Source: Eledone cirrhosa
Taxonomy: Eukaryota
Reading direction: 5' to 3'
DNA: 64,000 bases
NCBI GenBank assembly: GCA_964016885.1
Contig: OZ024754.1
Span: forward strand, 21,328,001-21,392,000
In this document: in pieces, positions 1 through 64,000 of the stretch
How positions within the stretch are numbered: position 1 is the stretch's first letter
Layout: each line of letters opens with the position of its first letter
Notes under the pieces: model-generated
Databases searched by the model: none
What the model was told of the DNA's origin: nothing
Seen by the model: only the letters and a program-made list of their open reading frames with translations
Made by a program: the position numbers and the translations under genes

Positions 1-626
1 CTATATTAACTACAGTTTTAATAAATTGTCTAAATGTTAAGTATATACTATATTAACTACAGTTTAAATAAATTGTCTAGATGTTAAGTATATACTATAT
101 TAACTACAGTTTTAATAAATTGTCTAGATGTTAAGTATATACTATATTAACTCCAGTTTTAATAAATTGTCTAGATGTTAAGTATATACTATATTAACTA
201 CAGTTTTAATAAATTGTCTAGATGTTAAGTATATACTATATTAACTACAGTTTTAATAAATTGTCTTGATGTTAAGTATATACTATATTAACTACAGTTT
301 TAATAAATTGTCTAGATGTTAAGTATATACTATATTAACTACAGTTTTAATAAATTGTCTAGATGTTAAGTATATACTATATTAACTACAGTTTTAATAA
401 ATTGTCTAGATGTTAAGTATATACTATATTAACTACAGTTTTAATAAATTGTCTAGATGTTAAGTATATACTATATTAACTACAGTTTTAATAAATTGTC
501 TTGATGTTAAGTATATACTATATTAACTACAGTTTTAATAAATTGTCTAGATGTTAAGTATATACTATATTAACTAGTTTTAATAAATTGTCTAGATGTT
601 AAGTATATACTATACTAGCAGTAAAG

Positions 627-642
627 CCCGGCGTTGCTCGGG
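627..642 (-). other. Helitron 3' subterminal hairpin (rolling-circle termination signal); present in all copies
   Basis: CCCGGC-GTT-GC(T)CGGG on +, 8 nt from the terminal CTAG at 615-618. Subtype B copies read GCTCAGGG. Confidence 0.85.
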
Positions 643-919
643 GTCGCTCAGTAGCTGTGTTAAAGTTACAATGTTAAGTTTCTTTCTTGGCTTAAAAACT
701 GTAGTGTCTTCTGTGCAGACTTGCATGTGGTGTTTTTGATTAATATTCCCTCAAACAACAATATGCCTTATGAAGTTAAGAAAACATAACAATAACCCGA
801 ATGTTATAACAAAAGAAGATGCTGGGGATAGAAACTGCACTGGTTATTTATTAACAAAGATCGAAAATGTAAACACTGCAACGCAGAGAAAAACATTAAC
901 GTAACCAAATTATCAGTTA

Positions 920-1064
920 TGTCTGTCTGCACGCCTATATCACCTCTCTGCACGACTGTCTGTCTGCACGCCTATATCACCTCTCTGCACGACTGTCTGT
1001 CTGCACGCGTATATCACCTCTCTGCACGACTGTCTGTCTGCACGACTGTCTGTGTCTGCACGCC
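920..1064. repeat. 37-bp minisatellite inside the Helitron (TGTCTGTCTGCACGCCTATATCACCTCTCTGCACGAC) followed by 16-bp sub-units
   Basis: 3 units plus partial 16-mers here, 4 units in copy 27578-28492, and fewer 16-mers in most subtype B copies. Confidence 0.95.
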
Positions 1065-3035
1065 TAACGACGAAGTATTTGCTTGTTTTACGTAGTCTTT
1101 AAATAGACTTGTTTTCAAGTAAAAATATTGTTTTAAAATGCTTTTAAATGGAAATGAAGCAAAACGGAAGCTTAGTGTTCGAACTGATGAATTTTGCAGG
1201 TCAATATTTTGCTGGCTCGACAACTGTTAAAGCCAGCGTAATTTTTTACGTAAGACGCTCAATGTAAACAGAACAAAGGGAAATAACTGATAACTTACGC
1301 TCAAAAATCGATACATTATATTCGATTTCGTCACATAGGGTGGGTGAATTTGAAATATTTTTTTTTCCGATGTCTTCGCTAGGGCTCAATGTACAAGTAT
1401 AGCAATTTCGGTGCAATTCCGTGAGAGATTCTAAGAGGAGATGTGTGCCACAAATCGATAGACAGACAGACAACCACAGTTTTATATATATAGATTAAAC
1501 ACAGTTTTAATAAATTGTCTAGCTGTTAAGTATATACTATATTAACTACAGTTTTAATAAATTGTCTAAATGTTAAGTATATACTATATTAATTACAGTT
1601 TTAATAAATTGTCTAGATGTTAAGTATATACTATATTAACTACATTTTTAATAAATTGTCTAGATGTTAAGTATATACTATATTAACTACAGTTTTAATA
1701 AATTATCTAGATGTTAAGTATATACTATATTAACTAGTTTTAATAAATTGTCTAGATGTTAAGTATATACTATATTAACTACAGTTTTAATAAATTGTCT
1801 CGATGTTAAGTATATACTATATTAACTACAGTTTTAATAAATTGTCTAGATGTTAAGTATATACTATATTAACTACAGTTTTAATAAATTGTCTAGATGT
1901 TAAGTATATACTATATTAACTAGTTTTAATAAATTGTCTAGATGTTAAGTATATACTATATTAACTACAGTTTTAATAAATTGTCTAGATGTTAAGTATA
2001 TACTATATTAACTACAGTTTTAATAAATTGTCTAGATGTTAAGTATATACTATATTAACTACAGTTTTAATAAATTATCTAGATGTTAAGTATATACTAT
2101 ATTAACTACAGTTTTAATAAATTGTCTAGATGTTAAGTATATACTATATTAACTACAGTTTTAATAAATTATCTAGATGTTAAGTATATACTATATTAAC
2201 TACAGTTTTAATAAATTGTCTAGATGTTAAGTATATCCTATATTAACTAGTTTTAATAAATTGTCTAGATGTTAAGTATATACTCTATTAACCACAGTTT
2301 TAATAAATTGTCTAGATGTTAAGTATATACTATATTAACTACAGTTTTAATAAATTGTCTAAATGTTAAGTATATACTATATTAACTACAGTTTAAATAA
2401 ATTGTCTAGATGTTAAGTATATACTATATTAACTACAGTTTTAATAAATTGTCTAGATGTTAAGTATATACTATATTAACTCCAGTTTTAATAAATTGTC
2501 TAGATGTTAAGTATATACTATATTAACTACAGTTTTAATAAATTGTCTAGATGTTAAGTATATACTATATTAACTACAGTTTTAATAAATTGTCTTGATG
2601 TTAAGTATATACTATATTAACTACAGTTTTAATAAATTGTCTAGATGTTAAGTATATACTATATTAACTACAGTTTTAATAAATTGTCTAGATGTTAAGT
2701 ATATACTATATTAACTAGTTTTAATAAATTGTCTAGATGTTAAGTATATACTCTATTAACCACAGTTTTAATAAATTGTCTAGATGTTAAGTATATACTA
2801 TATTAACTACAGTTTTAATAAATTGTCTAGATGTTAAGTATATACTATATTAACTACAGTTTTAATAAATTGTCTTGATGTTAAGTATATACTATATTAA
2901 CTACAGTTTTAATAAATTGTCTAGATGTTAAGTATATACTATATTAACTACAGTTTTAATAAATTGTCTAGATGTTAAGTATATACTATATTAACTAGTT
3001 TTAATAAATTGTCTAGATGTTAAGTATATACTATA

Positions 3036-3915
3036 CTAGCAGTAAAGCCCGGCGTTGCTCGGGGTCGCTCAGTAGCTGTGTTAAAGTTACAATGTTAAGT
3101 TTCTTTCTTGGCTTAAAAACTGTAGTGTCTACTGTGCAGACTTGCATGTGGTGTTTTTGATTAATATTCCCTCAACCAACAATATGCCTTATGAAGTTAA
3201 GAAAACATAACAATAACCCGAATGTTATAACAAAAGAGGATGCTGGGGATAGAAACTGCACTGGTTATTTATTAACAAAGATCGAAAATGTAAACACTGC
3301 AACGCAGAGAAAAACATTAACGTAACCAAATTATCAGTTATGTCTGTCTGCACGCCTATATCACCTCTCTGCACGACTGTCTGTCTGCACGCCTATATCA
3401 CCTCTCTGCACGACTGTCTGTCTGCACGCGTATATCACCTCTCTGCACGACTGTCTGTCTGCACGACTGTCTGTGTCTGCACGCCTAACGACGAAGTATT
3501 TGCTTGTTTTACGTAGTCTTTAAATAGACTTGTTTTCAAGTAAAAATATTGTTTTAAAATGCTTTTAAATGGAAATGAAGCAAAACGGAAGCTTAGTGTT
3601 CGAACTGATGAATTTTGCAGGTCAATATTTTGCTGGCTCGACAACTGTTAAAGCCAGCGTAATTTTTTACGTAAGACGCTCAATGTAAACAGAACAAAGG
3701 GAAATAACTGATAACTTACGCTCAAAAATCGATACATTATATTCGATTTAGTCACATAGGGTGGGTGAATTTGAAATAATTTTTTTTCCGATGTCTTCGC
3801 TAGGGCTCAATGTACAAGTATAGCAATTTCGGTGCAATTCCGTGAGAGATTCTAAGAGGAGATGTGTGCCGAAAATCGATAGACAGACAGACAACCACAG
3901 TTTTATATATATAGA
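3036..3915 (-). mobile_element. Non-autonomous Helitron, copy 2 (subtype A with some B markers)
   Basis: Same termini and insertion site as copy 1. Confidence 0.9.
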
Positions 3916-6856
3916 TTAAACACAGTTTTAATAAATTGTCTAGCTGTTAAGTATATACTATATTAACTACAGTTTTAATAAATTGTCTAAATGTTAAGTA
4001 TATACTATATTAACTACAGTTTTAATAAATTGTCTAGATGTTAAGTATATACTATATTAACTACATTTTTAATAAATTGTCTAGATGTTAAGTATATACT
4101 ATATTAACTACAGTTTTAATAAATTATCTAGATGTTAAGTATATACTATATTAACTAGTTTTAATAAATTTTCTAGATGTTAAGTATATACTATATTAAC
4201 TAGTTTTAATGAATTGTCTAGATATTAAGTATATACTATATTAACTACAGTTTTAATAAATTGTCTAGATGTTAAGTATATACTATATTAACTACAGTTT
4301 TAATAAATTGTCTAGATGTTAAGTATATACTATATTAACTACAGTTTTAATAAATTGTCTAGATGTTAAGTATATACTATATTAACTAGTTTTAATAAAT
4401 TGTCTAGATGTTAAGTATATACTCTATTAACCAGTTTTAATAAATTGTCTAGATGTTAAGTATATACTATATTAACTACAGTTTTAATAAATTGTCTAAA
4501 TGTTAAGTATATACTATATTAACTACAGTTTAAATAAATTGTCTAGATGTTAAGTATATACTATATTAACTACAGTTTTAATAAATTGTCTAGATGTTAA
4601 GTATATAATATATTAACTACAGTTTTAATAAATTGTCTAGATGTTAAGTATATACTATATTAACTACAGTTTTAATAAATTGTCTAATTGTTAAGTATAT
4701 ACTATATTAACTACAGTTTAAATAAATTATCTAGATGTTAAGTATATACTATATTAACTACAGTTTTAATAAATTGTCTAGATGTTAAGTATATACTATA
4801 TTAACTCCAGTTTTAATAAATTGTCTAGATGTTAAGTATATACTATATTAACTACAGTTTTAATAAATTGTCTAGATGTTAAGTATATACTATATTAACT
4901 ACAGTTTTAATAAATTGTCTAGATGTTAAGTATATACTATATTAACTAGTTTTAATAAATTGTCTAGATGTTAAGTATATACTATATTAACCACAGTTTT
5001 AATAAATTGTCTAGATGTTAAGTATATACTATATTAACTACAGTTTTAATAAATTGTCTAAATGTTAAGTATATACTATATTAACTACAGTTTAAATAAA
5101 TTGTCTAGATGTTAAGTATATACTATATTAACTACAGTTTTAATAAATTGTCTAGATGTTAAGTATATACTATATTAACTACAGTTTTAATAAATTGTCT
5201 CGATGTTAAGTATATACTATATTAACTACAGTTTTAATAAATTGTCTAGATGTTAAGTATATACTATATTAACTACAGTTTTAATAAATTGTCTAGATGT
5301 TAAGTATATACTATATTAACTAGTTTTAATAAATTGTCTAGATGTTAAGTATATACTATATTAACTACAGTTTTAATAAATTGTCTAGATGTTAAGTATA
5401 TACTATATTAACTACAGTTTTAATAAATTGTCTAGATGTTAAGTATATACTATATTAACTACAGTTTTAATAAATTATCTAGATGTTAAGTATATACTAT
5501 ATTAACTACAGTTTTAATAAATTGTCTAGATGTTAAGTATATACTATATTAACTACAGTTTTAATAAATTGTCTAGATGTTAAGTATATCCTATATTAAC
5601 TAGTTTTAATAAATTGTCTAGATGTTAAGTATATACTCTATTAACCACAGTTTTAATAAATTGTCTAGATGTTAAGTATATACTATATTAACTACAGTTT
5701 TAATAAATTGTCTCGATGTTAAGTATATACTATATTAACTACAGTTTTAATAAATTGTCTAGATGTTAAGTATATACTATATTAACTACAGTTTTAATAA
5801 ATTGTCTAGATGTTAAGTATATACTATATTAACTAGTTTTAATAAATTGTCTAGATGTTAAGTATATACTATATTAACTACAGTTTTAATAAATTGTCTA
5901 GATGTTAAGTATATACTATATTAACTACAGTTTTAATAAATTGTCTAGATGTTAAGTATATACTATATTAACTACAGTTTTAATAAATTATCTAGATGTT
6001 AAGTATATACTATATTAACTACAGTTTTAATAAATTGTCTAGATGTTAAGTATATACTATATTAACTACAGTTTTAATAAATTATCTAGATGTTAAGTAT
6101 ATACTATATGAACTACAGTTTTAATAAATTGTCTAGATGTTAAGTATATCCTATATTAACTAGTTTTAATAAATTGTCTAGATGTTAAGTATATACTCTA
6201 TTAACCACAGTTTTAATAAATTGTCTAGATGTTAAGTATATACTATATTAACTACAGTTTTAATAAATTGTCTAAATGTTAAGTATATACTATATTAACT
6301 ACAGTTTAAATAAATTGTCTAGATGTTAAGTATATACTATATTAACTACAGTTTTAATAAATTGTCTAGATGTTAAGTATATACTATATTAACTCCAGTT
6401 TTAATAAATTGTCTAGATGTTAAGTATATACTATATTAACTACAGTTTTAATAAATTGTCTAGATGTTAAGTATATACTATATTAACTACAGTTTTAATA
6501 AATTGTCTTGATGTTAAGTATATACTATATTAACTACAGTTTTAATAAATTGTCTAGATGTTAAGTATATACTATATTAACTACAGTTTTAATAAATTGT
6601 CTAGATGTTAAGTATATACTATATTAACTACAGTTTTAATAAATTGTCTAGATGTTAAGTATATACTATATTAACTACAGTTTTAATAAATTGTCTAGAT
6701 GTTAAGTATATACTATATTAACTACAGTTTTAATAAATTGTCTTGATGTTAAGTATATACTATATTAACTACAGTTTTAATAAATTGTCTAGATGTTAAG
6801 TATATACTATATTAACTAGTTTTAATAAATTGTCTAGATGTTAAGTATATACTATA

Positions 6857-7736
6857 CTAGCAGTAAAGCCCGGCGTTGCTCGGGGTCGCTCAGTAGCTGT
6901 GTTAAAGTTACAATGTTAAGTTTCTTTCTTGGCTTAAAAACTGTAGTGTCTTCTGTGCAGACTTGCATGTGGTGTTTTTGATTAATATTCCCTCAAACAA
7001 CAATATGCCTTATGAAGTTAAGAAAACATAACAATAACCCGAATGTTATAACAAAAGAAGATGCTGGGGATAGAAACTGCACTGGTTATTTATTAACAAA
7101 GATCGAAAATGTAAACACTGCAACGCAGAGAAAAACATTAACGTAACCAAATTATCAGTTATGTCTGTCTGCACGCCTATATCACCTCTCTGCACGACTG
7201 TCTGTCTGCACGCCTATATCACCTCTCTGCACGACTGTCTGTCTGCACGCGTATATCACCTCTCTGCACGACTGTCTGTCTGCACGACTGTCTGTGTCTG
7301 CACGCCTAACGACGAAGTATTTACTTGTTTTACGTAGTCTTTAAATAGACTTGTTTTCAAGTAAAAATATTGTTTTAAAATGCTTTTAAATGGAAATGAA
7401 GCAAAACGGAAGCTTAGTGTTCGAACTGATGAATTTTGCAGGTCAATATTTTGCTGGCTCGACAACTGTTAAAGCCAGCGTAATTTTTTACGTAAGACGC
7501 TCAATGTAAACAGAACAAAGGGAAATAACTGATAACTTACGCTCAAAAATCGATACATTATATTCGATTTCGTCACATAGGGTGGGTGAATTTGAAATAT
7601 TTTTTTTTCCGATGTCTTCGCTAGGGCTCAATGTACAAGTATAGCAATTTCGGTGCAATTCCGTGAGAGATTCTAAGAGGAGATGTGTGCCACAAATCGA
7701 TAGACAGACAGACAACCACAGTTTTATATATATAGA
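6857..7736 (-). mobile_element. Non-autonomous Helitron, copy 3 (A)
   Basis: Same termini and site. Confidence 0.9.
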
Positions 7737-9185
7737 TTAAACACAGTTTTAATAAATTGTCTAGCTGTTAAGTATATACTATATTAACTACAGTTTTAAT
7801 AAATTGTCTAAATGTTAAGTATATACTATATTAATTACAGTTTTAATAAATTGTCTAGATGTTAAGTATATACTATATTAACTACATTTTTAATAAATTG
7901 TCTAGATGTTAAGTATATACTATATTAACTACAGTTTTAATAAATTATCTAGATGTTAAGTATATACTATATTAACTAGTTTTAATAAATTGTCTAGATG
8001 TTAAGTATATACTATATTAACTACAGTTTTAATAAATTGTCTCGATGTTAAGTATATACTATATTAACTACAGTTTTAATAAATTGTCTAGATGTTAAGT
8101 ATATACTATATTAACTACAGTTTTAATAAATTGTCTAGATGTTAAGTATATACTATATTAACTAGTTTTAATAAATTGTCTAGATGTTAAGTATATACTA
8201 TATTAACTACAGTTTTAATAAATTGTCTAGATGTTAAGTATATACTATATTAACTACAGTTTTAATAAATTGTCTAGATGTTAAGTATATACTATATTAA
8301 CTACAGTTTTAATAAATTATCTAGATGTTAAGTATATACTATATTAACTACAGTTTTAATAAATTGTCTAGATGTTAAGTATATACTATATTAACTACAG
8401 TTTTAATAAATTATCTAGATGTTAAGTATATACTATATTAACTACAGTTTTAATAAATTGTCTAGATGTTAAGTATATCCTATATTAACTAGTTTTAATA
8501 AATTGTCTAGATGTTAAGTATATACTCTATTAACCACAGTTTTAATAAATTGTCTAGATGTTAAGTATATACTATATTAACTACAGTTTTAATAAATTGT
8601 CTAAATGTTAAGTATATACTATATTAACTACAGTTTAAATAAATTGTCTAGATGTTAAGTATATACTATATTAACTACAGTTTTAATAAATTGTCTAGAT
8701 GTTAAGTATATACTATATTAACTCCAGTTTTAATAAATTGTCTAGATGTTAAGTATATACTATATTAACTACAGTTTTAATAAATTGTCTAGATGTTAAG
8801 TATATACTATATTAACTACAGTTTTAATAAATTGTCTTGATGTTAAGTATATACTATATTAACTACAGTTTTAATAAATTGTCTAGATGTTAAGTATATA
8901 CTATATTAACTACAGTTTTAATAAATTGTCTAGATGTTAAGTATATACTATATTAACTACAGTTTTAATAAATTGTCTAGATGTTAAGTATATACTATAT
9001 TAACTACAGTTTTAATAAATTGTCTAGATGTTAAGTATATACTATATTAACTACAGTTTTAATAAATTGTCTTGATGTTAAGTATATACTATATTAACTA
9101 CAGTTTTAATAAATTGTCTAGATGTTAAGTATATACTATATTAACTAGTTTTAATAAATTGTCTAGATGTTAAGTATATACTATA

Positions 9186-10065
9186 CTAGCAGTAAAGCCC
9201 GGCGTTGCTCGGGGTCGCTCAGTAGCTGTGTTAAAGTTACAATGTTAAGTTTCTTTCTTGGCTTAAAAACTGTAGTGTCTTCTGTGCAGACTTGCATGTG
9301 GTGTTTTTGATTAATATTCCCTCAAACAACAATATGCCTTATGAAGTTAAGAAAACATAACAATAACCCGAATGTTATAACAAAAGAGGATGCTGGGGAT
9401 AGAAACTGCACTGGTTATTTATTAACAAAGATCGAAAATGTAAACACTGCAACGCAGAGAAAAACATTAACGTAACCAAATTATCAGTTATGTCTGTCTG
9501 CACGCCTATATCACCTCTCTGCACGACTGTCTGTCTGCACGCCTATATCACCTCTCTGCACGACTGTCTGTCTGCACGCGTATATCACCTCTCTGCACGA
9601 CTGTCTGTCTGCACGACTGTCTGTGTCTGCACGCCTAACGACGAAGTATTTGCTTGTTTTACGTAGTCTTTAAATAGACTTGTTTTCAAGTAAAAATATT
9701 GTTTTAAAATGCTTTTAAATGGAAATGAAGCAAAACGGAAGCTTAGTGTTCGAACTGATGAATTTTGCAGGTCAATATTTTGCTGGCTCGACAACTGTTA
9801 AAGCCAGCGTAATTTTTTACGTAAGACGCTCAATGTAAACAGAACAAAGGGAAATAACTGATAACTTACGCTCAAAAATCGATACATTATATTCGATTTC
9901 GTCACATAGGGTGGGTGAATTTGAAATATTTTTTTTTCCGATGTCTTCGCTAGGGCTCAATGTACAAGTATAGCAATTTCGGTGCAATTCCGTGAGAGAT
10001 TCTAAGAGGAGATGTGTGCCGAAAATCGATAGACAGACAGACAACCACAGTTTTATATATATAGA
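9186..10065 (-). mobile_element. Non-autonomous Helitron, copy 4 (A)
   Basis: Same termini and site. Confidence 0.9.
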
Positions 10066-12164
10066 TTAAACACAGTTTTAATAAATTGTCTAGCTGTTAA
10101 GTATATACTATATTAACTACAGTTTTAATAAATTGTCTAAATGTTAAGTATATACTATATTAACTACAGTTTTAATAAATTGTCTAGATGTTAAGTATAT
10201 ACTATATTAACTACATTTTTAATAAATTGTCTAGATGTTAAGTATATACTATATTAACTACAGTTTTAATAAATTATCTAGATGTTAAGTATATACTATA
10301 TTAACTAGTTTTAATAAATTGTCTAGATGTTAAGTATATACTATATTAACTAGTTTTAATGAATTGTCTAGATATTAAGTATATACTATATTAACTACAG
10401 TTTTAATAAATTGTCTAGATGTTAAGTATATACTATATTAACTACAGTTTTAATAAATTGTCTAGATGTTAAGTATATACTATATTAACTAGTTTTAATA
10501 AATTGTCTAGATGTTATGTTTATACTCTATTAACCAGTTTTAATAAATTGTCTAGATGTTAAGTATATACTATATTAACTACAGTTTTAATAAATTGTCT
10601 AAATGTTAAGTATATACTATATTAACTACAGTTTAAATAAATTGTCTAAATGTTAAGTATATACTATATTAACTACAGTTTTAATAAATTGTCTAGATGT
10701 TAAGTATATACTATATTAACTACAGTTTTAATAAATTGTCTAGATGTTAAGTATATACTATATTAACTACAGTTTTAATAAATTGTCTAATTGTTAAGTA
10801 TATACTATATTAACTACAGTTTAAATAAATTATCTAGATGTTAAGTATATACTATATTAACTACAGTTTTAATAAATTGTCTAGATGTTAAGTATATACT
10901 ATATTAACTCCAGTTTTAATAAATTGTCTAGATGTTAAGTATATACTATATTAACTACAGTTTTAATAAATTGTCTAGATGTTAAGTATATACTATATTA
11001 ACTACAGTTTTAATAAATTGTCTAGATGTTAAGTATATACTATATTAACTAGTTTTAATAAATTGTCTAGATGTTAAGTATATACTATATTAACCACAGT
11101 TTTAATAAATTGTCTAGATGTTAAGTATATACTATATTAACTACAGTTTTAATAAATTGTCTAAATGTTAAGTATATACTATATTAACTACAGTTTAAAT
11201 AAATTGTCTCGATGTTAAGTATATACTATATTAACTACAGTTTTAATAAATTGTCTAGATGTTGAGTATATACTATATTAACTACAGATTTAATAAATTG
11301 TCTAGATGTTAAGTATATACTATATTAACTAGTTTTAATAAATTGTCTAGATGTTAAGTATATACTATATTAACTACAGTTTTAATAAATTGTCTAGATG
11401 TTAAGTATATACTATATTAACTACAGTTTTAATAAATTGTCTAGATGTTAAGTATATACTATATTAACTACAGTTTTAATAAATTATCTAGATGTTAAGT
11501 ATATACTATATTAACTACAGTTTTAATAAATTGTCTAGATGTTAAGTATATACTATATTAACTACAGTTTTAATAAATTATCTAGATGTTAAGTATATAC
11601 TATATTAACTACAGTTTTAATAAATTGTCTAGATGTTAAGTATATCCTATATTAACTAGTTTTAATAAATTGTCTAGATGTTAAGTATATACTCTATTAA
11701 CCACAGTTTTAATAAATTGTCTAGATGTTAAGTATATACTATATTAACTCCAGTTTTAATAAATTGTCTAGATGTTAAGTATATACTATATTAACTACAG
11801 TTTTAATAAATTGTCTAGATGTTAAGTATATACTATATTAACTACAGTTTTAATAAATTGTCTTGATGTTAAGTATATACTATATTAACTACAGTTTTAA
11901 TAAATTGTCTAGATGTTAAGTATATACTATATTAACTACAGTTTTAATAAATTGTCTAGATGTTAAGTATATACTATATTAACTACAGTTTTAATAAATT
12001 GTCTAGATGTTAAGTATATACTATATTAACTACAGTTTTAATAAATTGTCTAGATGTTAAGTATATACTATATTAACTACAGTTTTAATAAATTGTCTAG
12101 ATGTTAAGTATATACTATATTAACTAGTTTTAATAAATTGTCTAGATGTTAAGTATATACTATA

Positions 12165-41810: not shown

Positions 41811-41816
<6 letters not shown>

Positions 41817-41854
<38 letters not shown>

Positions 41855-42194: not shown

Positions 42195-42195
42195 A

Positions 42196-47693: not shown

Positions 47694-47735
<42 letters not shown>

Positions 47736-48443: not shown

Positions 48444-49112
48444 AGTATATACTATATTAACTACAGTTTTAATAAATTGTCTAGATGTTAAGTATATACT
48501 CTATTAACCACAGTTTTAATAAATTGTCTAGATGTTAAGTATATACTATATTAACTACAGTTTTAATAAATTGTCTAAATGTTAAGTATATACTATATTA
48601 ACTACAGTTTAAATAAATTGTCTAGATGTTAAGTATATACTATATTAACTACAGTTTTAATAAATTGTCTAGATGTTAAGTATATACTATATTAACTACA
48701 GTTTTAATAAATTGTCTAGATGTTAAGTATATACTATATTAACTACAGTTTTAATAAATTGTTTAAATGTTAAGTATATACTATATTAACTACAGTTTAA
48801 ATAAATTGTCTAGATGTTAAGTATATACTATATTAACTACAGTTTTAATAAATTGTCTAGATGTTAAGTATATACTATATTAACTCCAGTTTTAATAAAT
48901 TGTCTAGATGTTAAGTATATACTATATTAACTACAGTTTTAATAAATTGTCTAGATGTTAAGTATATACTATATTAACTACAGTTTTAATAAATTGTCTA
49001 GATGTTAAGTATATACTATATTAACTACAGTTTTAATAAATTGTCTAGATGTTAAGTATATACTATATTAACTAGTTTTAATAAATTGTCTAGATGTTAA
49101 GTATATACTATA

Positions 49113-51311: not shown

Positions 51312-52554
51312 TATAGCGGAGATTACTGGTTATATGAATGTAACAAAACGAGACAATGTTTGTGTATATAATATTTAATTAACGGTAGATAGAATACTTG
51401 ACATGTCAAAGATAGATGTTAGAATGAAACAAAGTTAGTAGTTACCGTTTTGATTGCCAGGCAAATGCGGCTGGCAGAGGGTGCCTGGCTAAGGCCAGGC
51501 GCCTGTTGGCCAAATTAATGGCAGAGCCAAATGAGAAGACTCTTGACCTGGTGCCGAAAAGGCAAAGAGAGAGAGGAAGCTTAAAGTTGTTAGTTTTATA
51601 GGGCTCTCACCGGAAGTTGCAGAAAGGGTTCCACTTCCCGTCTAGATCCCAATCAAAACAAGGGAGACAACCGCTACATAACCTCCCGCCAGAATTTTAG
51701 TGTATAAAAATCGAAATGAAAATATGTAGCAAGTTGGCGAGAATGTTGTAACAGGCATGAAAATTACGACAAAAGAATGTTTGGAAAAATCAATGATAGA
51801 TATCAAGGTAGCCAACCGCTCTTGGCCAGAGAACGACTGGACATCCATCTATCCATCACCCAAAGATACAATGTAATAAAGTAAAAGTAATAAAAGAGCT
51901 CAAAGTTCAAAATATAGTTCACAGGTGTGCAATCACATGACAGCGGGAAAGAAAGTGTTCCAGAGAATGAATGCAGGTGGTTTCTGTTCTGTGGTATATC
52001 GTGAAATTTCCAACCTCCGAATGGATTTTCTCACAGGAAGAGTGCTGCAAAAATAAATTCTCTGGCTTTGGTGAAGCTGTGTTGATGTATTGCTGTTGCT
52101 GTTATATTGCTGTTGCTGCTGCTGTTGTCTCGCTGAGTGAGCGTATTCGGTGTTTAAATTCACAGTAAAAAAATTTTTTTTTAGAAAAAAATGAGTTGCG
52201 CAAAGTGCTAGAAATAGCAGCCGAAGTTGATGGTCGATGTTGAGAATGCGTTGACCTGGAAGGGTCAAGAGGCCAGCGACCAGAGAAATAAGCATTCTTA
52301 ATAAATGCGCGGTTATCAACGGTAAATTTACATTGTAAATTTATAAACCGGCAAATAGAAGAATATAGCTTAAGGCTGAAGAATCCCTGGTGATAAATGG
52401 CGTGCGGCTGTCTGTGAGAAGAGACATCTCAGTGAATCGAGAATTTATGCTGCCTACACGTGCCAATACAAGGTTGAAAAAAAATATTTCTAACGCGCGA
52501 GAAAATGATAGTGCAATTTTGAAAGTGACAATGATGAAATGTTTTTTAAAGAAT

Positions 52555-52597
<43 letters not shown>

Positions 52598-53303
52598 GTT
52601 TTGAAAGAGTTCGTTGTAAGAAACGAGAAACATATATATATATCGTGAAATGTTTTTTTTTTGTTTTGAAAGTGTTCGTTGTAAGAAACGAGAAACATAT
52701 ATATATATTGGTGAAATGCGACAGTTAATTGATGCGTGAGAGAAAAAGTATGTCTGTGCGAATTCCACATGTGCGTGTGTGCGTGTCCTTGAGTATTTTC
52801 ATAGTTTGTCGCTAAATTTGCTGTGTATTCGTAATGTTACTCACAAAACCAGATGTGCTATTTTTTTCTTTTTTTGGGGGGGTGACCACTTATAGCGATG
52901 AACGGCTGCGTGTTCGTATCACGTCGGGGTCACCAATATAGCGGAGATTACTGGTTATATGAATGTAACAAAACGAGACAATGTTTGTGTATATAATATT
53001 TAATTAACGGTAGATAGAATACTTGACATGTCAAAGATAGATGTTAGAATGAAACAAAGTTAGTAGTTACCGTTTTGATTGCCAGGCAAATGCGGCTGGC
53101 AGAGGGCGCCTGGCTAAGGCCAGGCGCCTGTTGGCCAAATTAATGGCAGAGCCAAATGAGAAGACTCTTGACCTGGTGCCGAAAAGGCAAAGAGAGAGAG
53201 GAAGCTTAAAGTTGTTAGTTTTATAGGGCTCTCACCGGAAGTTGCAGAAAGGGTTCCACTTCCCGTCTAGATCCCAATCAAAACAAGGGAGACAACCGCT
53301 ACA
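51312..53303 (-). mobile_element. Non-autonomous LTR retrotransposon, copy 3
   Basis: LTRs at 51312-51678 and 52937-53303; same TSD. One C>T at 51482 in the left LTR. Confidence 0.95.
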
Positions 53304-53972
53304 AGTATATACTATATTAACTACAGTTTTAATAAATTGTCTAGATGTTAAGTATATACTCTATTAACCACAGTTTTAATAAATTGTCTAGATGTTAAGT
53401 ATATACTATATTAACTACAGTTTTAATAAATTGTCTAAATGTTAAGTATATACTATATTAACTACAGTTTAAATAAATTGTCTAGATGTTAAGTATATAC
53501 TATATTAACTACAGTTTTAATAAATTGTCTAGATGTTAAGTATATACTATATTAACTACAGTTTTAATAAATTGTCTAGATGTTAAGTATATACTATATT
53601 AACTACAGTTTTAATAAATTGTTTAAATGTTAAGTATATACTATATTAACTACAGTTTAAATAAATTGTCTAGATGTTAAGTATATACTATATTAACTAC
53701 AGTTTTAATAAATTGTCTAGATGTTAAGTATATACTATATTAACTCCAGTTTTAATAAATTGTCTAGATGTTAAGTATATACTATATTAACTACAGTTTT
53801 AATAAATTGTCTAGATGTTAAGTATATACTATATTAACTACAGTTTTAATAAATTGTCTAGATGTTAAGTATATACTATATTAACTACAGTTTTAATAAA
53901 TTGTCTAGATGTTAAGTATATACTATATTAACTAGTTTTAATAAATTGTCTAGATGTTAAGTATATACTATA

Positions 53973-54833
53973 CTAGCAGTAAAGCCCGGCGTTGCTCAGG
54001 GTCGCTCAGTAGCTGTGTTAAAGTTACAATGTTAAGTTTCTTTCTTGGCTTAAAAACTATAGTGTCTACTGTGCAGACTTGCATGTGGTGTTTTTGATTA
54101 ATATTCCCTCAACCAACAATATGCCTTATGAAGTTAAGAAAACATAACGATAACCCGAATGTTATAACAAAAGAGGATGCTGGGGATAGAAACTGCACTG
54201 GTTATTTATTAACAAAGATCGAAAATGTAAACACTGCAACGCAGAGAAAAACATTAACGTAACCAAATTATCAGTTATGTCTGTCTGCACGCCTATATCA
54301 CCTCTCTGCACGACTGTCTGTCTGCACGCCTATATCACCTCTCTGCACGACTGTCTGTCTGCACGCGTATATCACCTCTCTGCACGACTGTCTGTCTGCA
54401 CGCCTAACGACGAAATATTTGCTTGTTTTACGTAGTCTTTAAATAGACTTGTTTTCAAGTAAAAATATTGTTTTAAGATGCTTTTAAATGGAAATGAAGC
54501 AAAACGGAAGCTTAGTGTTCGAACTGATGAATTTTGGAGGTCAATATTTTGCTGGCTCGACAACTGTTAAAGCCAGCGTAATTTTTCACGTAAGACGCTC
54601 AATGTAAACAAAACAAAGGGAAATAACTGATAACTTACGCTCAAAAATCGATACATTATATTCGATTTCGTCACATAGGGTGGGTCAATTTGAAATTTTT
54701 TTTTTCCGATTTCTTCGCTAGGGCTCAATGTACAAGTATAGCAATTTCGGTGCAATTCCGTGAGAGATTCTAAGAGGAGATGTGTGCCAAAAATCGATAG
54801 ACAGACAGACAACCACAGTTTTATATATATAGA
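53973..54833 (-). mobile_element. Non-autonomous Helitron, copy 18 (B)
   Basis: Same termini; B markers. Confidence 0.9.
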
Positions 54834-56960
54834 TTAACTAGTTTTAATAAATTGTCTAGATGTTAAGTATATACTATATTAACTACAGTTTTAATAAATT
54901 GTCTAGATGTTAAGTATATACTATATTAACTACAGTTTTAATAAATTATCTAGATGTTAAGTATATACTATATTAACTACAGTTTTAATAAATTGTCTAG
55001 ATGTTAAGTATATCCTATATTAACTAGTTTTAATAAATTGTCTAGATGTTAAGTATATACTCTATTAACCACAGTTTTAATAAATTGTCTAGATATTAAG
55101 TATATACTATATTAACTACAGTTTTAACAAATTATCTAGATGTTAAGTATATACTATATTAACTAGGTTTAATAAATTGTCTAGATGTTAAGTATATACT
55201 ATATTAACTAGTTTTAATAAATTGTCTAGATATTAAGTATATACTATATTAACTACAGTTTTAATAAATTGTCTAGATGTTAAGTATATACTATATTAAC
55301 TACAGTTTTAATAAATTGTCTAGATGTTAAGTATATACTATATTAACTACAGTTTTAATAAATTGTCTAGATGTTAAGTATATACAATATTAACTACAGT
55401 TTTAATAAATTGTCTAGATGTTAAGTATATACTATATTAACTAGTTTTAATAAATTGTCTAGATGTTGAGTATATACTCTATTAACCACAGTTTTAATAA
55501 ATTGTCTAGATGTTAAGTATATACTATATTAACTAGTTTTAATAAATTGTCTAGATGTTAAGTATATACTATATTAACTAGTTTTAATAAATTGTCTAGA
55601 TGTTAAGTATATACTATATTAACTAGTTTTAATAAATTGTCTAGATGTTAAGTAAATACTATATTAACTACAGTTTTAATAAATTGTCTAAATGTTAAGT
55701 ATATACTATATTAACTACAGTTTAAATAAATTGTCTAGATGTTAAGTATATACTATATTAACCACAGTTTTAATAAATTGTCTAGATGTTAAGTATATAC
55801 TATATTAACTACAGTTTTAATAAATTGTCTAAATGTTAAGTATATACTATATTAACTACAGTTTAAATAAATTGTCTAGATGTTAAGTATATACTATATT
55901 AACTACAGTTTTAATAAATTGTCTAGATGTTAAGTATATACTATATTAACTACAGTTTTAATAAATTGTCTAGATGTTAAGTATATACTATATTAACTAC
56001 AGTTTTAATAAATTGTTTAAATGTTAAGTATATACTATATTAACTACAGTTTAAATAAATTGTCTAGATGTTAAGTATATACTATATTAACTACAGTTTT
56101 AATAAATTGTCTAGATGTTAAGTATATACTATATTAACTCCAGTTTTAATAAATTGTCTAGATGTTAAGTATATACTATATTAACTACAGTTTTAATAAA
56201 TTGTCTAGATGTTAAGTATATACTATATTAACTACAGTTTTAATAAATTGTCTCGATGTTAAGTATATACTATATTAACTAGTTTTAATAAATTGTCTAG
56301 ATGTTAAGTATATACTATATTAACTGCAGTTTTAATAAATTGTCTAGATGTTAAGTATATACTATATTAACTAGTTTTAATAAATCGTCTAGATATTAAG
56401 TATATACTATATTAACTACAGTTTTAATAAATTATCTAGATGTTAAGTATATACTATATTAACTACAGTTTTAATAAATTGTCTAGATGTTAAGTATATA
56501 CTATATTAACTACAGTTTTAATAAATTATCTAGATGTTAAGTATATACTATATTAACTAGTTTTAATAAATTGTCTAGATGTTAAGTATATACTATATTA
56601 ACTAGTTTTAATAAATTGTCTAGATATTAAGTATATACTATATTAACTACAGTTTTAATAAATTGTCTAGATGTTAAGTATATACTATATTAACTACAGT
56701 TTTAATAAATTGTCTAGATGTTAAGTATATACTATATTAACTAGTTTTAATAAATTGTCTAGATGTTAAGTATATACTCTATTAACCACAGTTTTAATAA
56801 ATTGTCTAGATGTTAAGTATATACTATATTAACTACAGTTTTAATAAATTGTCTAAATGTTAAGTATATACTATATTAACTACAGTTTTAATAAATTGTC
56901 TAAATGTTAAGTATATACTATATTAACTACAGTTTAAATAAATTGTCTAGATGTTAAGTA

Positions 56961-58203
56961 TATAGCGGAGATTACTGGTTATATGAATGTAACAAAACGA
57001 GACAATGTTTGTGTATATAATATTTAATTAACGGTAGATAGAATACTTGACATGTCAAAGATAGATGTTAGAATGAAACAAAGTTAGTAGTTACCGTTTT
57101 GATTGCCAGGCAAATGCGGCTGGCAGAGGGCGCCTGGCTAAGGCCAGGCGCCTGTTGGCCAAATTAATGGCAGAGCCAAATGAGAAGACTCTTGACCTGG
57201 TGCCGAAAAGGCAAAGAGAGAGAGGAAGCTTAAAGTTGTTAGTTTTATAGGGCTCTCACCGGAAGTTGCAGAAAGGGTTCCACTTCCCGTCTAGATCCCA
57301 ATCAAAACAAGGGAGACAACCGCTACATAACCTCCCGCCAGAATTTTAGTGTATAAAAATCGAAATGAAAATATGTAGCAAGTTGGCGAGAATGTTGTAA
57401 CAGGCATGAAAATTACGACAAAAGAATGTTTGGAAAAATCAATGATAGATATCAAGGTAGCCAACCGCTCTTGGCCAGAGAACGACTGGACATCCATCTA
57501 TCCATCACCCAAAGATACAATGTAATAAAGTAAAAGTAATAAAAGAGCTCAAAGTTCAAAATATAGTTCACAGGTGTGCAATCACATGACAGCGGGAAAG
57601 AAAGTGTTCCAGAGAATGAATGCAGGTGGTTTCTGTTCTGTGGTATATCGTGAAATTTCCAACCTCCGAATGGATTTTCTCACAGGAAGAGTGCTGCAAA
57701 AATAAATTCTCTGGCTTTGGTGAAGCTGTGTTGATGTATTGCTGTTGCTGTTATATTGCTGTTGCTGCTGCTGTTGTCTCGCTGAGTGAGCGTATTCGGT
57801 GTTTAAATTCACAGTAAAAAAATTTTTTTTTAGAAAAAAATGAGTTGCGCAAAGTGCTAGAAATAGCAGCCGAAGTTGATGGTCGATGTTGAGAATGCGT
57901 TGACCTGGAAGGGTCAAGAGGCCAGCGACCAGAGAAATAAGCATTCTTAATAAATGCGCGGTTATCAACGGTAAATTTACATTGTAAATTTATAAACCGG
58001 CAAATAGAAGAATATAGCTTAAGGCTGAAGAATCCCTGGTGATAAATGGCGTGCGGCTGTCTGTGAGAAGAGACATCTCAGTGAATCAAGAATTTATGCT
58101 GCCTACACGTGCCAATACAAGGTTGAAAAAAAATATTTCTAACGCGCGAGAAAATGATAGTGCAATTTTGAAAGTGACAATGATGAAATGTTTTTTAAAG
58201 AAT

Positions 58204-58246
<43 letters not shown>

Positions 58247-58954
58247 GTTTTGAAAGAGTTCGTTGTAAGAAACGAGAAACATATATATATATCGTGAAAT
58301 GTTTTTTTTTTGTTTTGAAAGTGTTCGTTGTAAGAAACGAGAAACATATATATATATATTGGTGAAATGCGACAGTTAATTGATGCGTGAGAGAAAAAGT
58401 ATGTCTGTGCGAATTCCACATGTGCGTGTGTGCGTGTCCTTGAGTATTTTCATAGTTTGTCGCTAAATTTGCTGTGTATTCGTAATGTTACTCACAAAAC
58501 CAGATGTGCTATTTTTTTCTTTTTTTGGGGGGGTGACCACTTATAGCGATGAACGGCTGCGTGTTCGTATCACGTCGGGGTCACCAATATAGCGGAGATT
58601 ACTGGTTATATGAATGTAACAAAACGAGACAATGTTTGTGTATATAATATTTAATTAACGGTAGATAGAATACTTGACATGTCAAAGATAGATGTTAGAA
58701 TGAAACAAAGTTAGTAGTTACCGTTTTGATTGCCAGGCAAATGCGGCTGGCAGAGGGCGCCTGGCTAAGGCCAGGCGCCTGTTGGCCAAATTAATGGCAG
58801 AGCCAAATGAGAAGACTCTTGACCTGGTGCCGAAAAGGCAAAGAGAGAGAGGAAGCTTAAAGTTGTTAGTTTTATAGGGCTCTCACCGGAAGTTGCAGAA
58901 AGGGTTCCACTTCCCGTCTAGATCCCAATCAAAACAAGGGAGACAACCGCTACA
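56961..58954 (-). mobile_element. Non-autonomous LTR retrotransposon, copy 4
   Basis: LTRs at 56961-57327 and 58588-58954; same TSD. Confidence 0.95.
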
Positions 58955-59623
58955 AGTATATACTATATTAACTACAGTTTTAATAAATTGTCTAGATGTT
59001 AAGTATATACTCTATTAACCACAGTTTTAATAAATTGTCTAGATGTTAAGTATATACTATATTAACTACAGTTTTAATAAATTGTCTAAATGTTAAGTAT
59101 ATACTATATTAACTACAGTTTAAATAAATTGTCTAGATGTTAAGTATATACTATATTAACTACAGTTTTAATAAATTGTCTAGATGTTAAGTATATACTA
59201 TATTAACTACAGTTTTAATAAATTGTCTAGATGTTAAGTATATACTATATTAACTACAGTTTTAATAAATTGTTTAAATGTTAAGTATATACTATATTAA
59301 CTACAGTTTAAATAAATTGTCTAGATGTTAAGTATATACTATATTAACTACAGTTTTAATAAATTGTCTAGATGTTAAGTATATACTATATTAACTCCAG
59401 TTTTAATAAATTGTCTAGATGTTAAGTATATACTATATTAACTACAGTTTTAATAAATTGTCTAGATGTTAAGTATATACTATATTAACTACAGTTTTAA
59501 TAAATTGTCTAGATGTTAAGTATATACTATATTAACTACAGTTTTAATAAATTGTCTAGATGTTAAGTATATACTATATTAACTAGTTTTAATAAATTGT
59601 CTAGATGTTAAGTATATACTATA

Positions 59624-60484
59624 CTAGCAGTAAAGCCCGGCGTTGCTCAGGGTCGCTCAGTAGCTGTGTTAAAGTTACAATGTTAAGTTTCTTTCTTGGC
59701 TTAAAAACTATAGTGTCTACTGTGCAGACTTGCATGTGGTGTTTTTGATTAATATTCCCTCAACCAACAATATGCCTTATGAAGTTAAGAAAACATAACG
59801 ATAACCCGAATGTTATAACAAAAGAGGATGCTGGGGATAGAAACTGCACTGGTTATTTATTAACAAAGATCGAAAATGTAAACACTGCAACGCAGAGAAA
59901 AACATTAACGTAACCAAATTATCAGTTATGTCTGTCTGCACGCCTATATCACCTCTCTGCACGACTGTCTGTCTGCACGCCTATATCACCTCTCTGCACG
60001 ACTGTCTGTCTGCACGCGTATATCACCTCTCTGCACGACTGTCTGTCTGCACGCCTAACGACGAAATATTTGCTTGTTTTACGTAGTCTTTAAATAGACT
60101 TGTTTTCAAGTAAAAATATTGTTTTAAGATGCTTTTAAATGGAAATGAAGCAAAACGGAAGCTTAGTGTTCGAACTGATGAATTTTGGAGGTCAATATTT
60201 TGCTGGCTCGACAACTGTTAAAGCCAGCGTAATTTTTCACGTAAGACGCTCAATGTAAACAAAACAAAGGGAAATAACTGATAACTTACGCTCAAAAATC
60301 GATACATTATATTCGATTTCGTCACATAGGGTGGGTCAATTTGAAATTTTTTTTTTCCGATTTCTTCGCTAGGGCTCAATGTACAAGTATAGCAATTTCG
60401 GTGCAATTCCGTGAGAGATTCTAAGAGGAGATGTGTGCCAAAAATCGATAGACAGACAGACAACCACAGTTTTATATATATAGA
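59624..60484 (-). mobile_element. Non-autonomous Helitron, copy 19 (B)
   Basis: Same termini; B markers. Confidence 0.9.
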
Positions 60485-62611
60485 TTAACTAGTTTTAATA
60501 AATTGTCTAGATGTTAAGTATATACTATATTAACTACAGTTTTAATAAATTGTCTAGATGTTAAGTATATACTATATTAACTACAGTTTTAATAAATTAT
60601 CTAGATGTTAAGTATATACTATATTAACTACAGTTTTAATAAATTGTCTAGATGTTAAGTATATCCTATATTAACTAGTTTTAATAAATTGTCTAGATGT
60701 TAAGTATATACTCTATTAACCACAGTTTTAATAAATTGTCTAGATATTAAGTATATACTATATTAACTACAGTTTTAACAAATTATCTAGATGTTAAGTA
60801 TATACTATATTAACTAGGTTTAATAAATTGTCTAGATGTTAAGTATATACTATATTAACTAGTTTTAATAAATTGTCTAGATATTAAGTATATACTATAT
60901 TAACTACAGTTTTAATAAATTGTCTAGATGTTAAGTATATACTATATTAACTACAGTTTTAATAAATTGTCTAGATGTTAAGTATATACTATATTAACTA
61001 CAGTTTTAATAAATTGTCTAGATGTTAAGTATATACAATATTAACTACAGTTTTAATAAATTGTCTAGATGTTAAGTATATACTATATTAACTAGTTTTA
61101 ATAAATTGTCTAGATGTTGAGTATATACTCTATTAACCACAGTTTTAATAAATTGTCTAGATGTTAAGTATATACTATATTAACTAGTTTTAATAAATTG
61201 TCTAGATGTTAAGTATATACTATATTAACTAGTTTTAATAAATTGTCTAGATGTTAAGTATATACTATATTAACTAGTTTTAATAAATTGTCTAGATGTT
61301 AAGTAAATACTATATTAACTACAGTTTTAATAAATTGTCTAAATGTTAAGTATATACTATATTAACTACAGTTTAAATAAATTGTCTAGATGTTAAGTAT
61401 ATACTATATTAACTACAGTTTTAATAAATTGTCTAGATGTTAAGTATATACTCTATTAACCACAGTTTTAATAAATTGTCTAGATGTTAAGTATATACTA
61501 TATTAACTACAGTTTTAATAAATTGTCTAAATGTTAAGTATATACTATATTAACTACAGTTTAAATAAATTGTCTAGATGTTAAGTATATACTATATTAA
61601 CTACAGTTTTAATAAATTGTCTAGATGTTAAGTATATACTATATTAACTACAGTTTTAATAAATTGTTTAAATGTTAAGTATATACTATATTAACTACAG
61701 TTTAAATAAATTGTCTAGATGTTAAGTATATACTATATTAACTACAGTTTTAATAAATTGTCTAGATGTTAAGTATATACTATATTAACTCCAGTTTTAA
61801 TAAATTGTCTAGATGTTAAGTATATACTATATTAACTACAGTTTTAATAAATTGTCTAGATGTTAAGTATATACTATATTAACTACAGTTTTAATAAATT
61901 GTCTCGATGTTAAGTATATACTATATTAACTAGTTTTAATAAATTGTCTAGATGTTAAGTATATACTATATTAACTGCAGTTTTAATAAATTGTCTAGAT
62001 GTTAAGTATATACTATATTAACTAGTTTTAATAAATCGTCTAGATATTAAGTATATACTATATTAACTACAGTTTTAATAAATTATCTAGATGTTAAGTA
62101 TATACTATATTAACTACAGTTTTAATAAATTGTCTAGATGTTAAGTATATACTATATTAACTACAGTTTTAATAAATTATCTAGATGTTAAGTATATACT
62201 ATATTAACTAGTTTTAATAAATTGTCTAGATGTTAAGTATATACTATATTAACTAGTTTTAATAAATTGTCTAGATATTAAGTATATACTATATTAACTA
62301 CAGTTTTAATAAATTGTCTAGATGTTAAGTATATACTATATTAACTACAGTTTTAATAAATTGTCTAGATGTTAAGTATATACTATATTAACTAGTTTTA
62401 ATAAATTGTCTAGATGTTAAGTATATACTCTATTAACCACAGTTTTAATAAATTGTCTAGATGTTAAGTATATACTATATTAACTACAGTTTTAATAAAT
62501 TGTCTAAATGTTAAGTATATACTATATTAACTACAGTTTTAATAAATTGTCTAAATGTTAAGTATATACTATATTAACTACAGTTTAAATAAATTGTCTA
62601 GATGTTAAGTA

Positions 62612-63854
62612 TATAGCGGAGATTACTGGTTATATGAATGTAACAAAACGAGACAATGTTTGTGTATATAATATTTAATTAACGGTAGATAGAATACTTG
62701 ACATGTCAAAGATAGATGTTAGAATGAAACAAAGTTAGTAGTTACCGTTTTGATTGCCAGGCAAATGCGGCTGGCAGAGGGCGCCTGGCTAAGGCCAGGC
62801 GCCTGTTGGCCAAATTAATGGCAGAGCCAAATGAGAAGACTCTTGACCTGGTGCCGAAAAGGCAAAGAGAGAGAGGAAGCTTAAAGTTGTTAGTTTTATA
62901 GGGCTCTCACCGGAAGTTGCAGAAAGGGTTCCACTTCCCGTCTAGATCCCAATCAAAACAAGGGAGACAACCGCTACATAACCTCCCGCCAGAATTTTAG
63001 TGTATAAAAATCGAAATGAAAATATGTAGCAAGTTGGCGAGAATGTTGTAACAGGCATGAAAATTACGACAAAAGAATGTTTGGAAAAATCAATGATAGA
63101 TATCAAGGTAGCCAACCGCTCTTGGCCAGAGAACGACTGGACATCCATCTATCCATCACCCAAAGATACAATGTAATAAAGTAAAAGTAATAAAAGAGCT
63201 CAAAGTTCAAAATATAGTTCACAGGTGTGCAATCACATGACAGCGGGAAAGAAAGTGTTCCAGAGAATGAATGCAGGTGGTTTCTGTTCTGTGGTATATC
63301 GTGAAATTTCCAACCTCCGAATGGATTTTCTCACAGGAAGAGTGCTGCAAAAATAAATTCTCTGGCTTTGGTGAAGCTGTGTTGATGTATTGCTGTTGCT
63401 GTTATATTGCTGTTGCTGCTGCTGTTGTCTCGCTGAGTGAGCGTATTCGGTGTTTAAATTCACAGTAAAAAAATTTTTTTTTAGAAAAAAATGAGTTGCG
63501 CAAAGTGCTAGAAATAGCAGCCGAAGTTGATGGTCGATGTTGAGAATGCGTTGACCTGGAAGGGTCAAGAGGCCAGCGACCAGAGAAATAAGCATTCTTA
63601 ATAAATGCGCGGTTATCAACGGTAAATTTACATTGTAAATTTATAAACCGGCAAATAGAAGAATATAGCTTAAGGCTGAAGAATCCCTGGTGATAAATGG
63701 CGTGCGGCTGTCTGTGAGAAGAGACATCTCAGTGAATCAAGAATTTATGCTGCCTACACGTGCCAATACAAGGTTGAAAAAAAATATTTCTAACGCGCGA
63801 GAAAATGATAGTGCAATTTTGAAAGTGACAATGATGAAATGTTTTTTAAAGAAT

Positions 63855-63897
<43 letters not shown>

Positions 63898-64000
63898 GTT
63901 TTGAAAGAGTTCGTTGTAAGAAACGAGAAACATATATATATATCGTGAAATGTTTTTTTTTTGTTTTGAAAGTGTTCGTTGTAAGAAACGAGAAACATAT
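62612..64000 (-). mobile_element. Non-autonomous LTR retrotransposon, copy 5 (cut by the window end)
   Basis: 3' LTR at 62612-62978 plus interior; same left junction. Confidence 0.93.

Follow-up and report, generated by a model that had tools for sequence, protein, structure and literature searches.

A 260-kb satellite array that probably grew in place within one intron of an LBR/TM7SF2 gene of Eledone cirrhosa, with Helitron and LTR insertions copied along

Here we analysed a stretch of 64,000 nucleotides of Eledone cirrhosa (GenBank assembly GCA_964016885.1, contig OZ024754.1, hereafter C14), called the window throughout, which covers C14:21,328,001-21,392,000 of a 46.3-Mb chromosome-scale contig in a 3.0-Gb genome and consists of a 47-bp satellite interrupted by Helitrons and by long terminal repeat (LTR) elements. 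Our main finding is that the array to which this window belongs takes up a whole intron in a gene of the LBR/TM7SF2 (ERG4/ERG24) type and has probably grown there in place, two Helitron insertions and one LTR insertion having probably been copied along with the satellite, and that the gene is apparently still spliced.

Results

The array occupies a single intron

Reading of the neighbouring stretches revealed a single continuous array spanning C14:21,307,913-21,568,415 (260.5 kb), which overshoots the window by ~20 kb on the left and ~176 kb on the right, the same distances at which the donor and the acceptor of a 260,566-bp intron are found. The first array base stands 5 bp past the GTAAG donor and the last one 58 bp before the AG acceptor. 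Two features run through the window:

1..64000, + strand: slice of the 260,566-bp GT-AG intron (C14:21,307,908-21,568,473) of the LBR/TM7SF2 (ERG4/ERG24) gene, from exon models and the exon junctions in run X4
1..62615, + strand: satellite of 47-bp monomers and their variants, 45-bp ones among them, forming 24 blocks separated by the elements, from monomer decomposition

Decomposition of the whole array yielded 4194 monomers of 119 types (3272 monomers of 47 bp and 830 of 45 bp), and these types are ordered in long higher-order strings across the array, the 47-mers differing by a mean of 1.5% from the commonest type. Satellite makes up 75% of the intron, Helitrons 15% and the LTR element 10%; the whole array holds 46 Helitrons and 13 LTR elements, with long element-free stretches farther right. 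Its right half (from ~21,427,000) also carries aberrant monomers of 58, 30 and 21 bp as fixed members of multi-kb higher-order units. Exact genome-wide searches with a 33-mer and a 22-mer monomer probe placed all of their matches (1616/1616 and 3167/3167, respectively) inside the array, and exact matching of these two probes against all contigs found the satellite at no other locus. In the search for dispersed copies that the initial annotation had proposed, exact genome-wide matches number 2943 for the Helitron end and 713 for one LTR end, and the two monomer probes have none outside the array.

Inflation of the copy number by the assembler is an explanation that we consider highly improbable. 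It would draw on the near identity of the units and on the exact duplicates of 6 kb present in the intron, the latter of which also count against our own interpretation. The 119 monomer types, however, form ordered and mutating higher-order strings with unit-specific substitutions, no exact duplicate of 8 kb exists, and the summed monomer depth in the sequencing run X1 is roughly 4,000-4,500 times the exon depth, which is of the order of the assembled count, although X1 is possibly the assembly's own source sample and, as the tool warns, read depth is not copy number.

The host gene and its splicing

Two exons to the left of the array match the Pfam family ERG4_ERG24 (PF01222), and a family search adds exons on both sides. 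Nine exons align in order to give 517 codons whose sole stop is terminal; the closest protein relative is TM7SF2 of Octopus bimaculoides (79%), with 415 of 523 aligned columns identical. The introns of this model measure 0.4-1.0 kb upstream and then 260,566 bp, 3.6 kb and 19.3 kb; in the assembled allele the frame is open and the splice sites are intact. With PF01222 in an open, spliceable frame, the host is, as far as its sequence tells, an octopod sterol-reductase gene of the ERG4/ERG24 family. An intronless ERG4/ERG24 gene with a long open frame is located on the same contig (C14:33,859,955-33,861,190, L083); it is DHCR14-like, 47% identical to P0004, and possibly an old retrocopy. A second intronless gene of the family with a long open frame lies at C6:15,129,071-15,130,174 (L084) and is presumably DHCR7-like. 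In the intron before exon 7 we saw by eye a short 68-bp tandem repeat inside an apparent solo LTR (L016:8880-9575).

Contigs of run X4, which bears the same species label, comes from another sample than X1 and has no library type on record, join exons 6-7, 7-8 and 8-9 exactly at the predicted sites, and because they carry these exon-exon junctions X4 was taken as RNA. At the 7-8 junction the end of exon 7 is followed directly by 25 bases from the start of exon 8. The gene appears to be still spliced across the array, and the spliced product would derive from an allele with the long array. X4 also holds a monomer-to-monomer junction, which means that its sample carries a tandem array of some size. 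Recursive splice sites (AGGTRAG) are absent throughout the intron. Among the X4 contigs listed none crosses the exon 7 donor into the intron; contigs drop rare forms, and this absence is hence silent on premature polyadenylation.

The intron contains 4032 AATAAA motifs on the sense strand and 46 on the antisense strand, and one source reports intronic AATAAA to be counter-selected across eukaryotes and suppressed by U1 (PMC5499120). Both points favour an alternative in which array and origin are the same as we propose but the long allele is silenced or its transcripts end early at an AATAAA, so that a short allele or a different individual would supply the spliced transcript, with possible compensation by an intronless paralogue; that X4 is another sample and that an intronless DHCR14-like paralogue lies on C14 would also suit it. 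We regard this alternative as unlikely, since the junction between monomers puts a tandem array in X4 itself, the assembled allele has kept its open frame and splice sites, and a half-empty genotype is not what the ratio of monomer to exon depth in X1 (~4,000-4,500) suggests, even if depth must not be read as copy number. An AATAAA alone need not be a working polyadenylation signal.

If splicing across the array is as it appears, the transcript passes thousands of these motifs, and one idea of how it might do so is a satellite that protects itself. Donor motifs are complementary to U1, and TAAGTAT of the monomer, which would stem from the copied donor, would pair with U1; on the sense strand, AATAAA is present in 3977 of the 4194 array monomers and TAAGTAT in 3829. 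The broken donor copy in each monomer would pair with U1 over 7 contiguous bases and suppress the ~4,000 AATAAA while offering no usable donor, which would explain the ~3,000-fold expansion of this unit inside a transcribed gene; if this were true, pairing with U1 would be a rule for which repeats survive in introns. We think the idea doubtful. The U1 complementarity of the monomer, 8 of 11 bases, is equalled by 9% of shuffles and is not significant, AATAAA arises in 12% of monomer shuffles, and neither motif is rare by chance in a unit so rich in AT.

Probable origin of the monomer from the intron itself

Run X5 comes from a relative, organism B, and one of its contigs (425 nt, depth 11.3) contains exon 7 followed without gaps by intron bases 1-37. 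A contig agreeing with it in length, depth and strand contains the 3' part of the monomer core, the acceptor and exon 8, the coordinates of both overlapping by exactly the 22 bases that they share. The reduced-representation run X6 gave no coverage of this site. The intron of the relative is ~87 bp long and carries a single copy of the 32-bp monomer core; 17 exon differences are listed for X5, 13 of them at third codon positions. The short intron would be the ancestral state, judging from this one relative and from the youth of the array.

The monomer is made of intron bases 6-37, which form the 32-bp core, and of a linker of 15 bp. Allowing for one inserted base, this linker agrees with intron bases 1-14 in 12 of 14 positions, and 0.1% of shuffles score as high in this post hoc comparison. 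The linker is probably a degenerate copy of the splice donor, and this resemblance indicates that the repeat was likely born by local duplication of the donor region, the copied donor being broken. No copied exon bases were found in the monomer, whose match is confined to intron bases 1-37, and its AATAAA was inherited from the precursor (intron bases 22-27). An origin of the satellite from a Helitron end, suggested by a 12/13 match to AACyACAGTTTTA seen by eye, was dropped because the core is single-copy in the intron of the relative.

Two lineages of Helitrons in the array

The window contains 19 Helitrons of 857-915 bp, described in the initial annotation as lying in one orientation at CTATA/TTAA after a 45-bp monomer, and all 19 do so; their start-to-start spacing over the 14 left intervals is 1654-3821 bp, as had been reported. 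In the whole array 43 of the 46 Helitrons are preceded by a 45-bp monomer. Because such monomers are only 830 of 4194, finding 19 of 19 Helitrons after one is far beyond chance. The copies of the window are:

615..1494, - strand: non-autonomous Helitron of lineage L, 5' TC, 3' CTAG, hairpin at ~627-642 (ends, haplotype, flank)
Starts 3036, 6857, 9186, 12165, 14445, 16774, - strand: further lineage L Helitrons of the same type
Starts 19103, 22176, 24456, 27578, 31111, 34949, - strand: further lineage L Helitrons of the same type
33295..34155, - strand: Helitron of lineage R with private alleles, followed by a 45-bp monomer and interleaved with L copies at the domain boundary
37133..38009, - strand: Helitron of lineage R (haplotype)
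43232..44092, - strand: Helitron of the LTR-associated sub-lineage of R, 14.3 monomers to the right of the LTR element
49113-49969, 53973-54833, 59624-60484, - strand: the same LTR-associated R type

On the minus strand the element begins with TCTA and ends with CTAG, which correspond to the 5' TC and 3' CTRR of Helitrons, and bears an imperfect hairpin of 16 nt that ends 12 nt from the terminus and whose folding energy is unexceptional (z -0.66). All 46 array copies are inserted between A and T, with no target duplication, and the element has no coding frame, no stop-free frame exceeding 87 codons. According to PMC4067079, a canonical Helitron has 5' TC, 3' CTRR, a palindrome of 16-20 nt ~11 bp from its 3' end and an A/T insertion without duplication; the array element falls within this definition as a canonical non-autonomous Helitron.

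Two lineages were distinguished, L with 21 copies and R with 25. Within the window the right flank is a TTAAAC-type monomer in 13 of the 19 Helitrons and a 45-bp monomer in 6, and over the whole array haplotype and right flank co-segregate in 46/46 copies, a congruence of elements and flanks where the initial annotation had named incongruent trees as grounds for its refutation. The tree, calculated after two divergent dispersed rows had been left out and identical rows collapsed, supports L with 95/87 and R with 99/94. The allele marking L is present in 65 dispersed copies and in none of the R copies, one R allele has 24 occurrences in the array and a single one in the rest of the genome, and no allele is private to L and R jointly. 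That sole dispersed copy with the R marker carries 1 of the 3 R alleles and hence does not stand out as the donor of R. As to the site, a profile from 32 dispersed Helitron flanks (98% A at position -1) gives the used site the top score of the 14 A/T sites in the monomer. Two independent insertions would consequently coincide there about half the time, and because this is the best-scoring target of the family a shared phase is weak evidence of common origin.

We conclude that two Helitron founders are probable rather than one. A single insertion, with L and R diverging later and the right flank replaced by recombination or conversion, is less probable though not far-fetched: phase, orientation and the 45-bp left monomer are the same in both lineages, and the tree, in which L and R form one weakly supported branch (90/76), does not reject a single clade. 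Both facts weigh against two founders. On the other side stand the different right flanks with 0 recombinants in 46 copies, the membership of the L marker in a dispersed sub-lineage that R lacks, the want of any allele private to both, and the likelihood just given that two independent draws share the site. The proposal of the initial annotation, that one Helitron insertion was amplified with the satellite, therefore stands as regards amplification, and gives way as regards the single founder to two insertions, which fit the two haplotypes and two right flanks better. It was also observed that Helitrons of this family are often inserted beside or inside their own copies and that their preferred target resembles their own 5' end (L105-L109, L115-L116, L125-L128, C1).

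One LTR insertion, probably later than the Helitrons of lineage R

The initial annotation placed all five LTR elements of the window at one AGTA site, at intervals of 5883, 4861, 5649 and 5651 bp. We recovered the same spacings and found AGTA on both sides of the elements, the fifth being cut by the window end:

40568..42562, - strand: non-autonomous Ty3/Gypsy-type LTR element, 1995 bp (LTRs, primer site, relatives)
42196-42562 and 40568-40934, - strand: 367-bp LTRs of the first element (paired ends)
40564-40567 and 42563-42566: AGTA duplication of the first element
42177..42194, - strand: primer-binding site for tRNA-Trp(CCA) of this genome, whose 3' end it matches, with agreement continuing to ~42163
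46451..48443, - strand: LTR element copy 2, AGTA duplication
51312..53303, - strand: LTR element copy 3, AGTA duplication
56961..58954, - strand: LTR element copy 4, AGTA duplication
62612..64000, - strand: LTR element copy 5, truncated at the window edge; the assembly has it complete, ending 605 bp further on

The array element has no frame over 135 codons. A longer relative whose LTRs are ~80% alike (L140) encodes reverse transcriptase (RT), RNase H and integrase in Gypsy order, another longer one (L141) RT and RNase H, and the array element can accordingly be classed, by structure and kinship, as a non-autonomous Ty3/Gypsy LTR retrotransposon. The usual primer-binding match is 18 bases; here (window 42140-42195) the tRNA-Trp match spans 29 bases with 2 mismatches, and beside it stand a short inverted repeat and the LTR-end motif in a further copy; the LTRs end in TG...TA, not TG...CA. 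PMC2582038 describes the CsRn1 clade of Ty3/Gypsy with a tRNA-Trp primer site and a 4-bp duplication. The array element resembles that clade in primer site and duplication length, and the clade may serve as a lead only. ARAGORN found no tRNA in any of the first 6 loci, and tRNA-Trp was found in a separate cluster, a tandem series of >30 tRNA-Trp-like 3' ends at C4:353,394,900-353,486,314 (L139), where 3/3 in the fetched stretch are tRNA-Trp(CCA) genes. An Rfam scan of window positions 39500-45000 gave 0 matches.

The AGTA target duplication is common to 13/13 array copies, whereas 8/8 dispersed copies carry different duplications. The array copies have 75 private alignment columns in common and differ from one another by a mean of 1.95 sites, against at least 23 from any of the 8 dispersed copies, a set of best matches, not random ones, kept from 12 loci after 4 had been dropped (1 duplicate, 2 one-ended and 1 without a clean start). 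The two LTRs are identical in 10 of the 13 array copies and have 1 difference in the other 3, and the duplications are of 4 bp. The 11 Helitrons that stand beside LTR elements differ by 0.18 sites and are nested within R, and the empty monomer string of the LTR target site occurs 28 times in the array. Shared AGTA, private columns, R-nested Helitrons and empty sites taken together point to one LTR insertion, later than the R Helitron. The sequence of events put forward in the initial annotation is borne out here, inasmuch as empty target sites persisting in the array place the satellite first, shared private columns and multi-monomer flanks attest that the transposons were amplified as parts of larger units, and the single duplication with its near-identical adjoining Helitrons, nested in one lineage, places the LTR element last.

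That every Helitron or LTR copy was instead inserted independently, in a site-specific manner, is barely credible in spite of an abundant Helitron family that prefers this site. Private alleles and multi-monomer flanking haplotypes are common to the copies, the R marker is found 24 times in the array against once elsewhere, and the dispersed LTR copies have no fixed target. This congruence between element and flank largely refutes independent insertion, and 46 separate Helitron insertions are effectively excluded.

Discussion

Taking all the results together, a history can be proposed in which the 5' end (first 37 bases) of an ancestral intron of roughly 90 bp was first duplicated and then expanded. 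Two Helitron insertions would have followed at the preferred site of the family and then one LTR element would have been inserted at a distance of 14 monomers from an R Helitron. Unequal exchange or slippage would afterwards have duplicated blocks of several kb again and again, with the transposons as passengers. The array shows variable monomer counts, L and R copies interleaved at the boundary and mosaic L haplotypes, which fit unequal exchange with conversion; as the copying mechanism, unequal exchange is suggested by the established behaviour of tandem arrays. The order of events is likewise what we infer from these patterns. The transposons are passengers, and no function of the array is implied.

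Several facts call for caution with this history. The gene model comprises nine exons and the first coding exon is not among them. The two X5 contig records were equated by length, depth, strand and overlapping coordinates and not by identifier, and the polarity is drawn from one relative only. The exon 7-8 junction is a single contig of depth ~5 that reaches 25 letters into exon 8, fewer than the 31 that the tool demands, and X4, differing in sample from X1, gives no size for the array allele.

The initial annotation had suggested that such a macrosatellite could arise in a centromeric or heterochromatic array, adding that the sequence does not show centromeric function. This framing finds no support, the exact matches of both probes placing the satellite at one locus only, in an intron of a gene that is apparently expressed. 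In favour of a centromeric or pericentromeric array that is specific to this chromosome and overlaps a gene by chance are the AT-richness, the length of 260 kb, the higher-order structure and the position near the middle of the 46.3-Mb chromosome. Nevertheless we judge it very unlikely. Exact matches of the satellite occur on no other contig, rather than at one major locus on most chromosomes, and the array, which the relative lacks, lies between a splice donor and an acceptor and stems from the intron's own sequence. In the flanks examined, 26% on the left side and 35% on the right side consist of other tandem arrays, one of them in the final intron of this gene, so arrays of this sort are common here.

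The surroundings contain such arrays of several kinds. An unrelated 29-bp array of ~639 copies (18 kb; C14:21,572,931-21,591,384, L067-L068) fills the gene's final intron of 19.3 kb. Private satellites thus occupy two introns of a single gene, which indicates that the process is common here. A 40-bp array at C14:21,263,362-21,273,937 (L094, L013) has ~220 copies and then reverses, with ~44 copies on the other strand, and a 34-bp array of at least 14.8 kb lies at C14:21,168,001-21,182,803 (L085-L086).

Giant introns filled with satellite and satellite units bearing transposons are already known, their origin being rarely visible. What is new in this locus is a near-complete record of birth, together with ~4,000 sense-strand AATAAA in one apparently spliced intron. 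A single-copy precursor in a relative, empty and filled sites side by side and nested haplotypes make the order of events readable, and the locus offers a model for intron growth of ~3,000-fold and for the entry of transposons into higher-order repeats without a centromere role. It is also a natural test of how transcripts survive thousands of sense AATAAA signals, and if intron-private arrays are common in octopods they may contribute to long genes there.

Comparison with known systems

A literature search, with most subscription journals and supplements outside its reach, returned no paper on satellite-filled cephalopod introns. In oysters, Helentron/Helitron elements reportedly carry satellite arrays inside them (PMC7492417, PMC8268682), a likeness in that a rolling-circle element and a satellite are associated in a mollusc; here, unlike there, the Helitron is inside the satellite, and since the monomer is found nowhere else the array Helitron does not spread it.

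Avian 'sequence stuttering' on dot chromosomes (Hron et al. 2026, PMC12954441) concerns GC-rich regions devoid of interspersed repeats and resembles our case in locally born repeats tens of bases long, confined to one intron and sometimes containing a copied splice site, with intact exons. The array described here differs in being AT-rich, 260 kb long and homogeneous (1.5%), with higher-order units and co-amplified transposons; local origin in one intron with intact exons is common to both, and copied exon fragments are not found in ours. The amphioxus 'mirages' (PMC3087553) are also minisatellites copied from an exon-intron boundary, with splicing reportedly undisturbed. Their globin cases have 3-6 units against ~4,190 here, where the monomer contains no exon bases and an inserted base disrupts the copied donor.

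Human HSat1B/DYZ2 (bioRxiv 10.1101/2022.12.01.518724) has likewise a transposon piece in the unit of an AT-rich array, both homogenised together, but that piece is an ancient AluY fragment, 20% diverged, whereas the elements here are whole and very young, belong to two classes and have kept empty sites and intermediates beside them. Comparable in scale are the Y-linked kl-3 and kl-5 genes of Drosophila (PMC6508621, PMC11207136), whose introns of at least hundreds of kb are filled with satellite, transcribed and spliced. Those introns belong to testis genes and contain simple satellites in megabase amounts; the present array, by comparison, lies in a conserved membrane-enzyme gene on a chromosome-scale contig, its 47-bp monomer is traceable to the intron itself, and a short orthologous intron is known.

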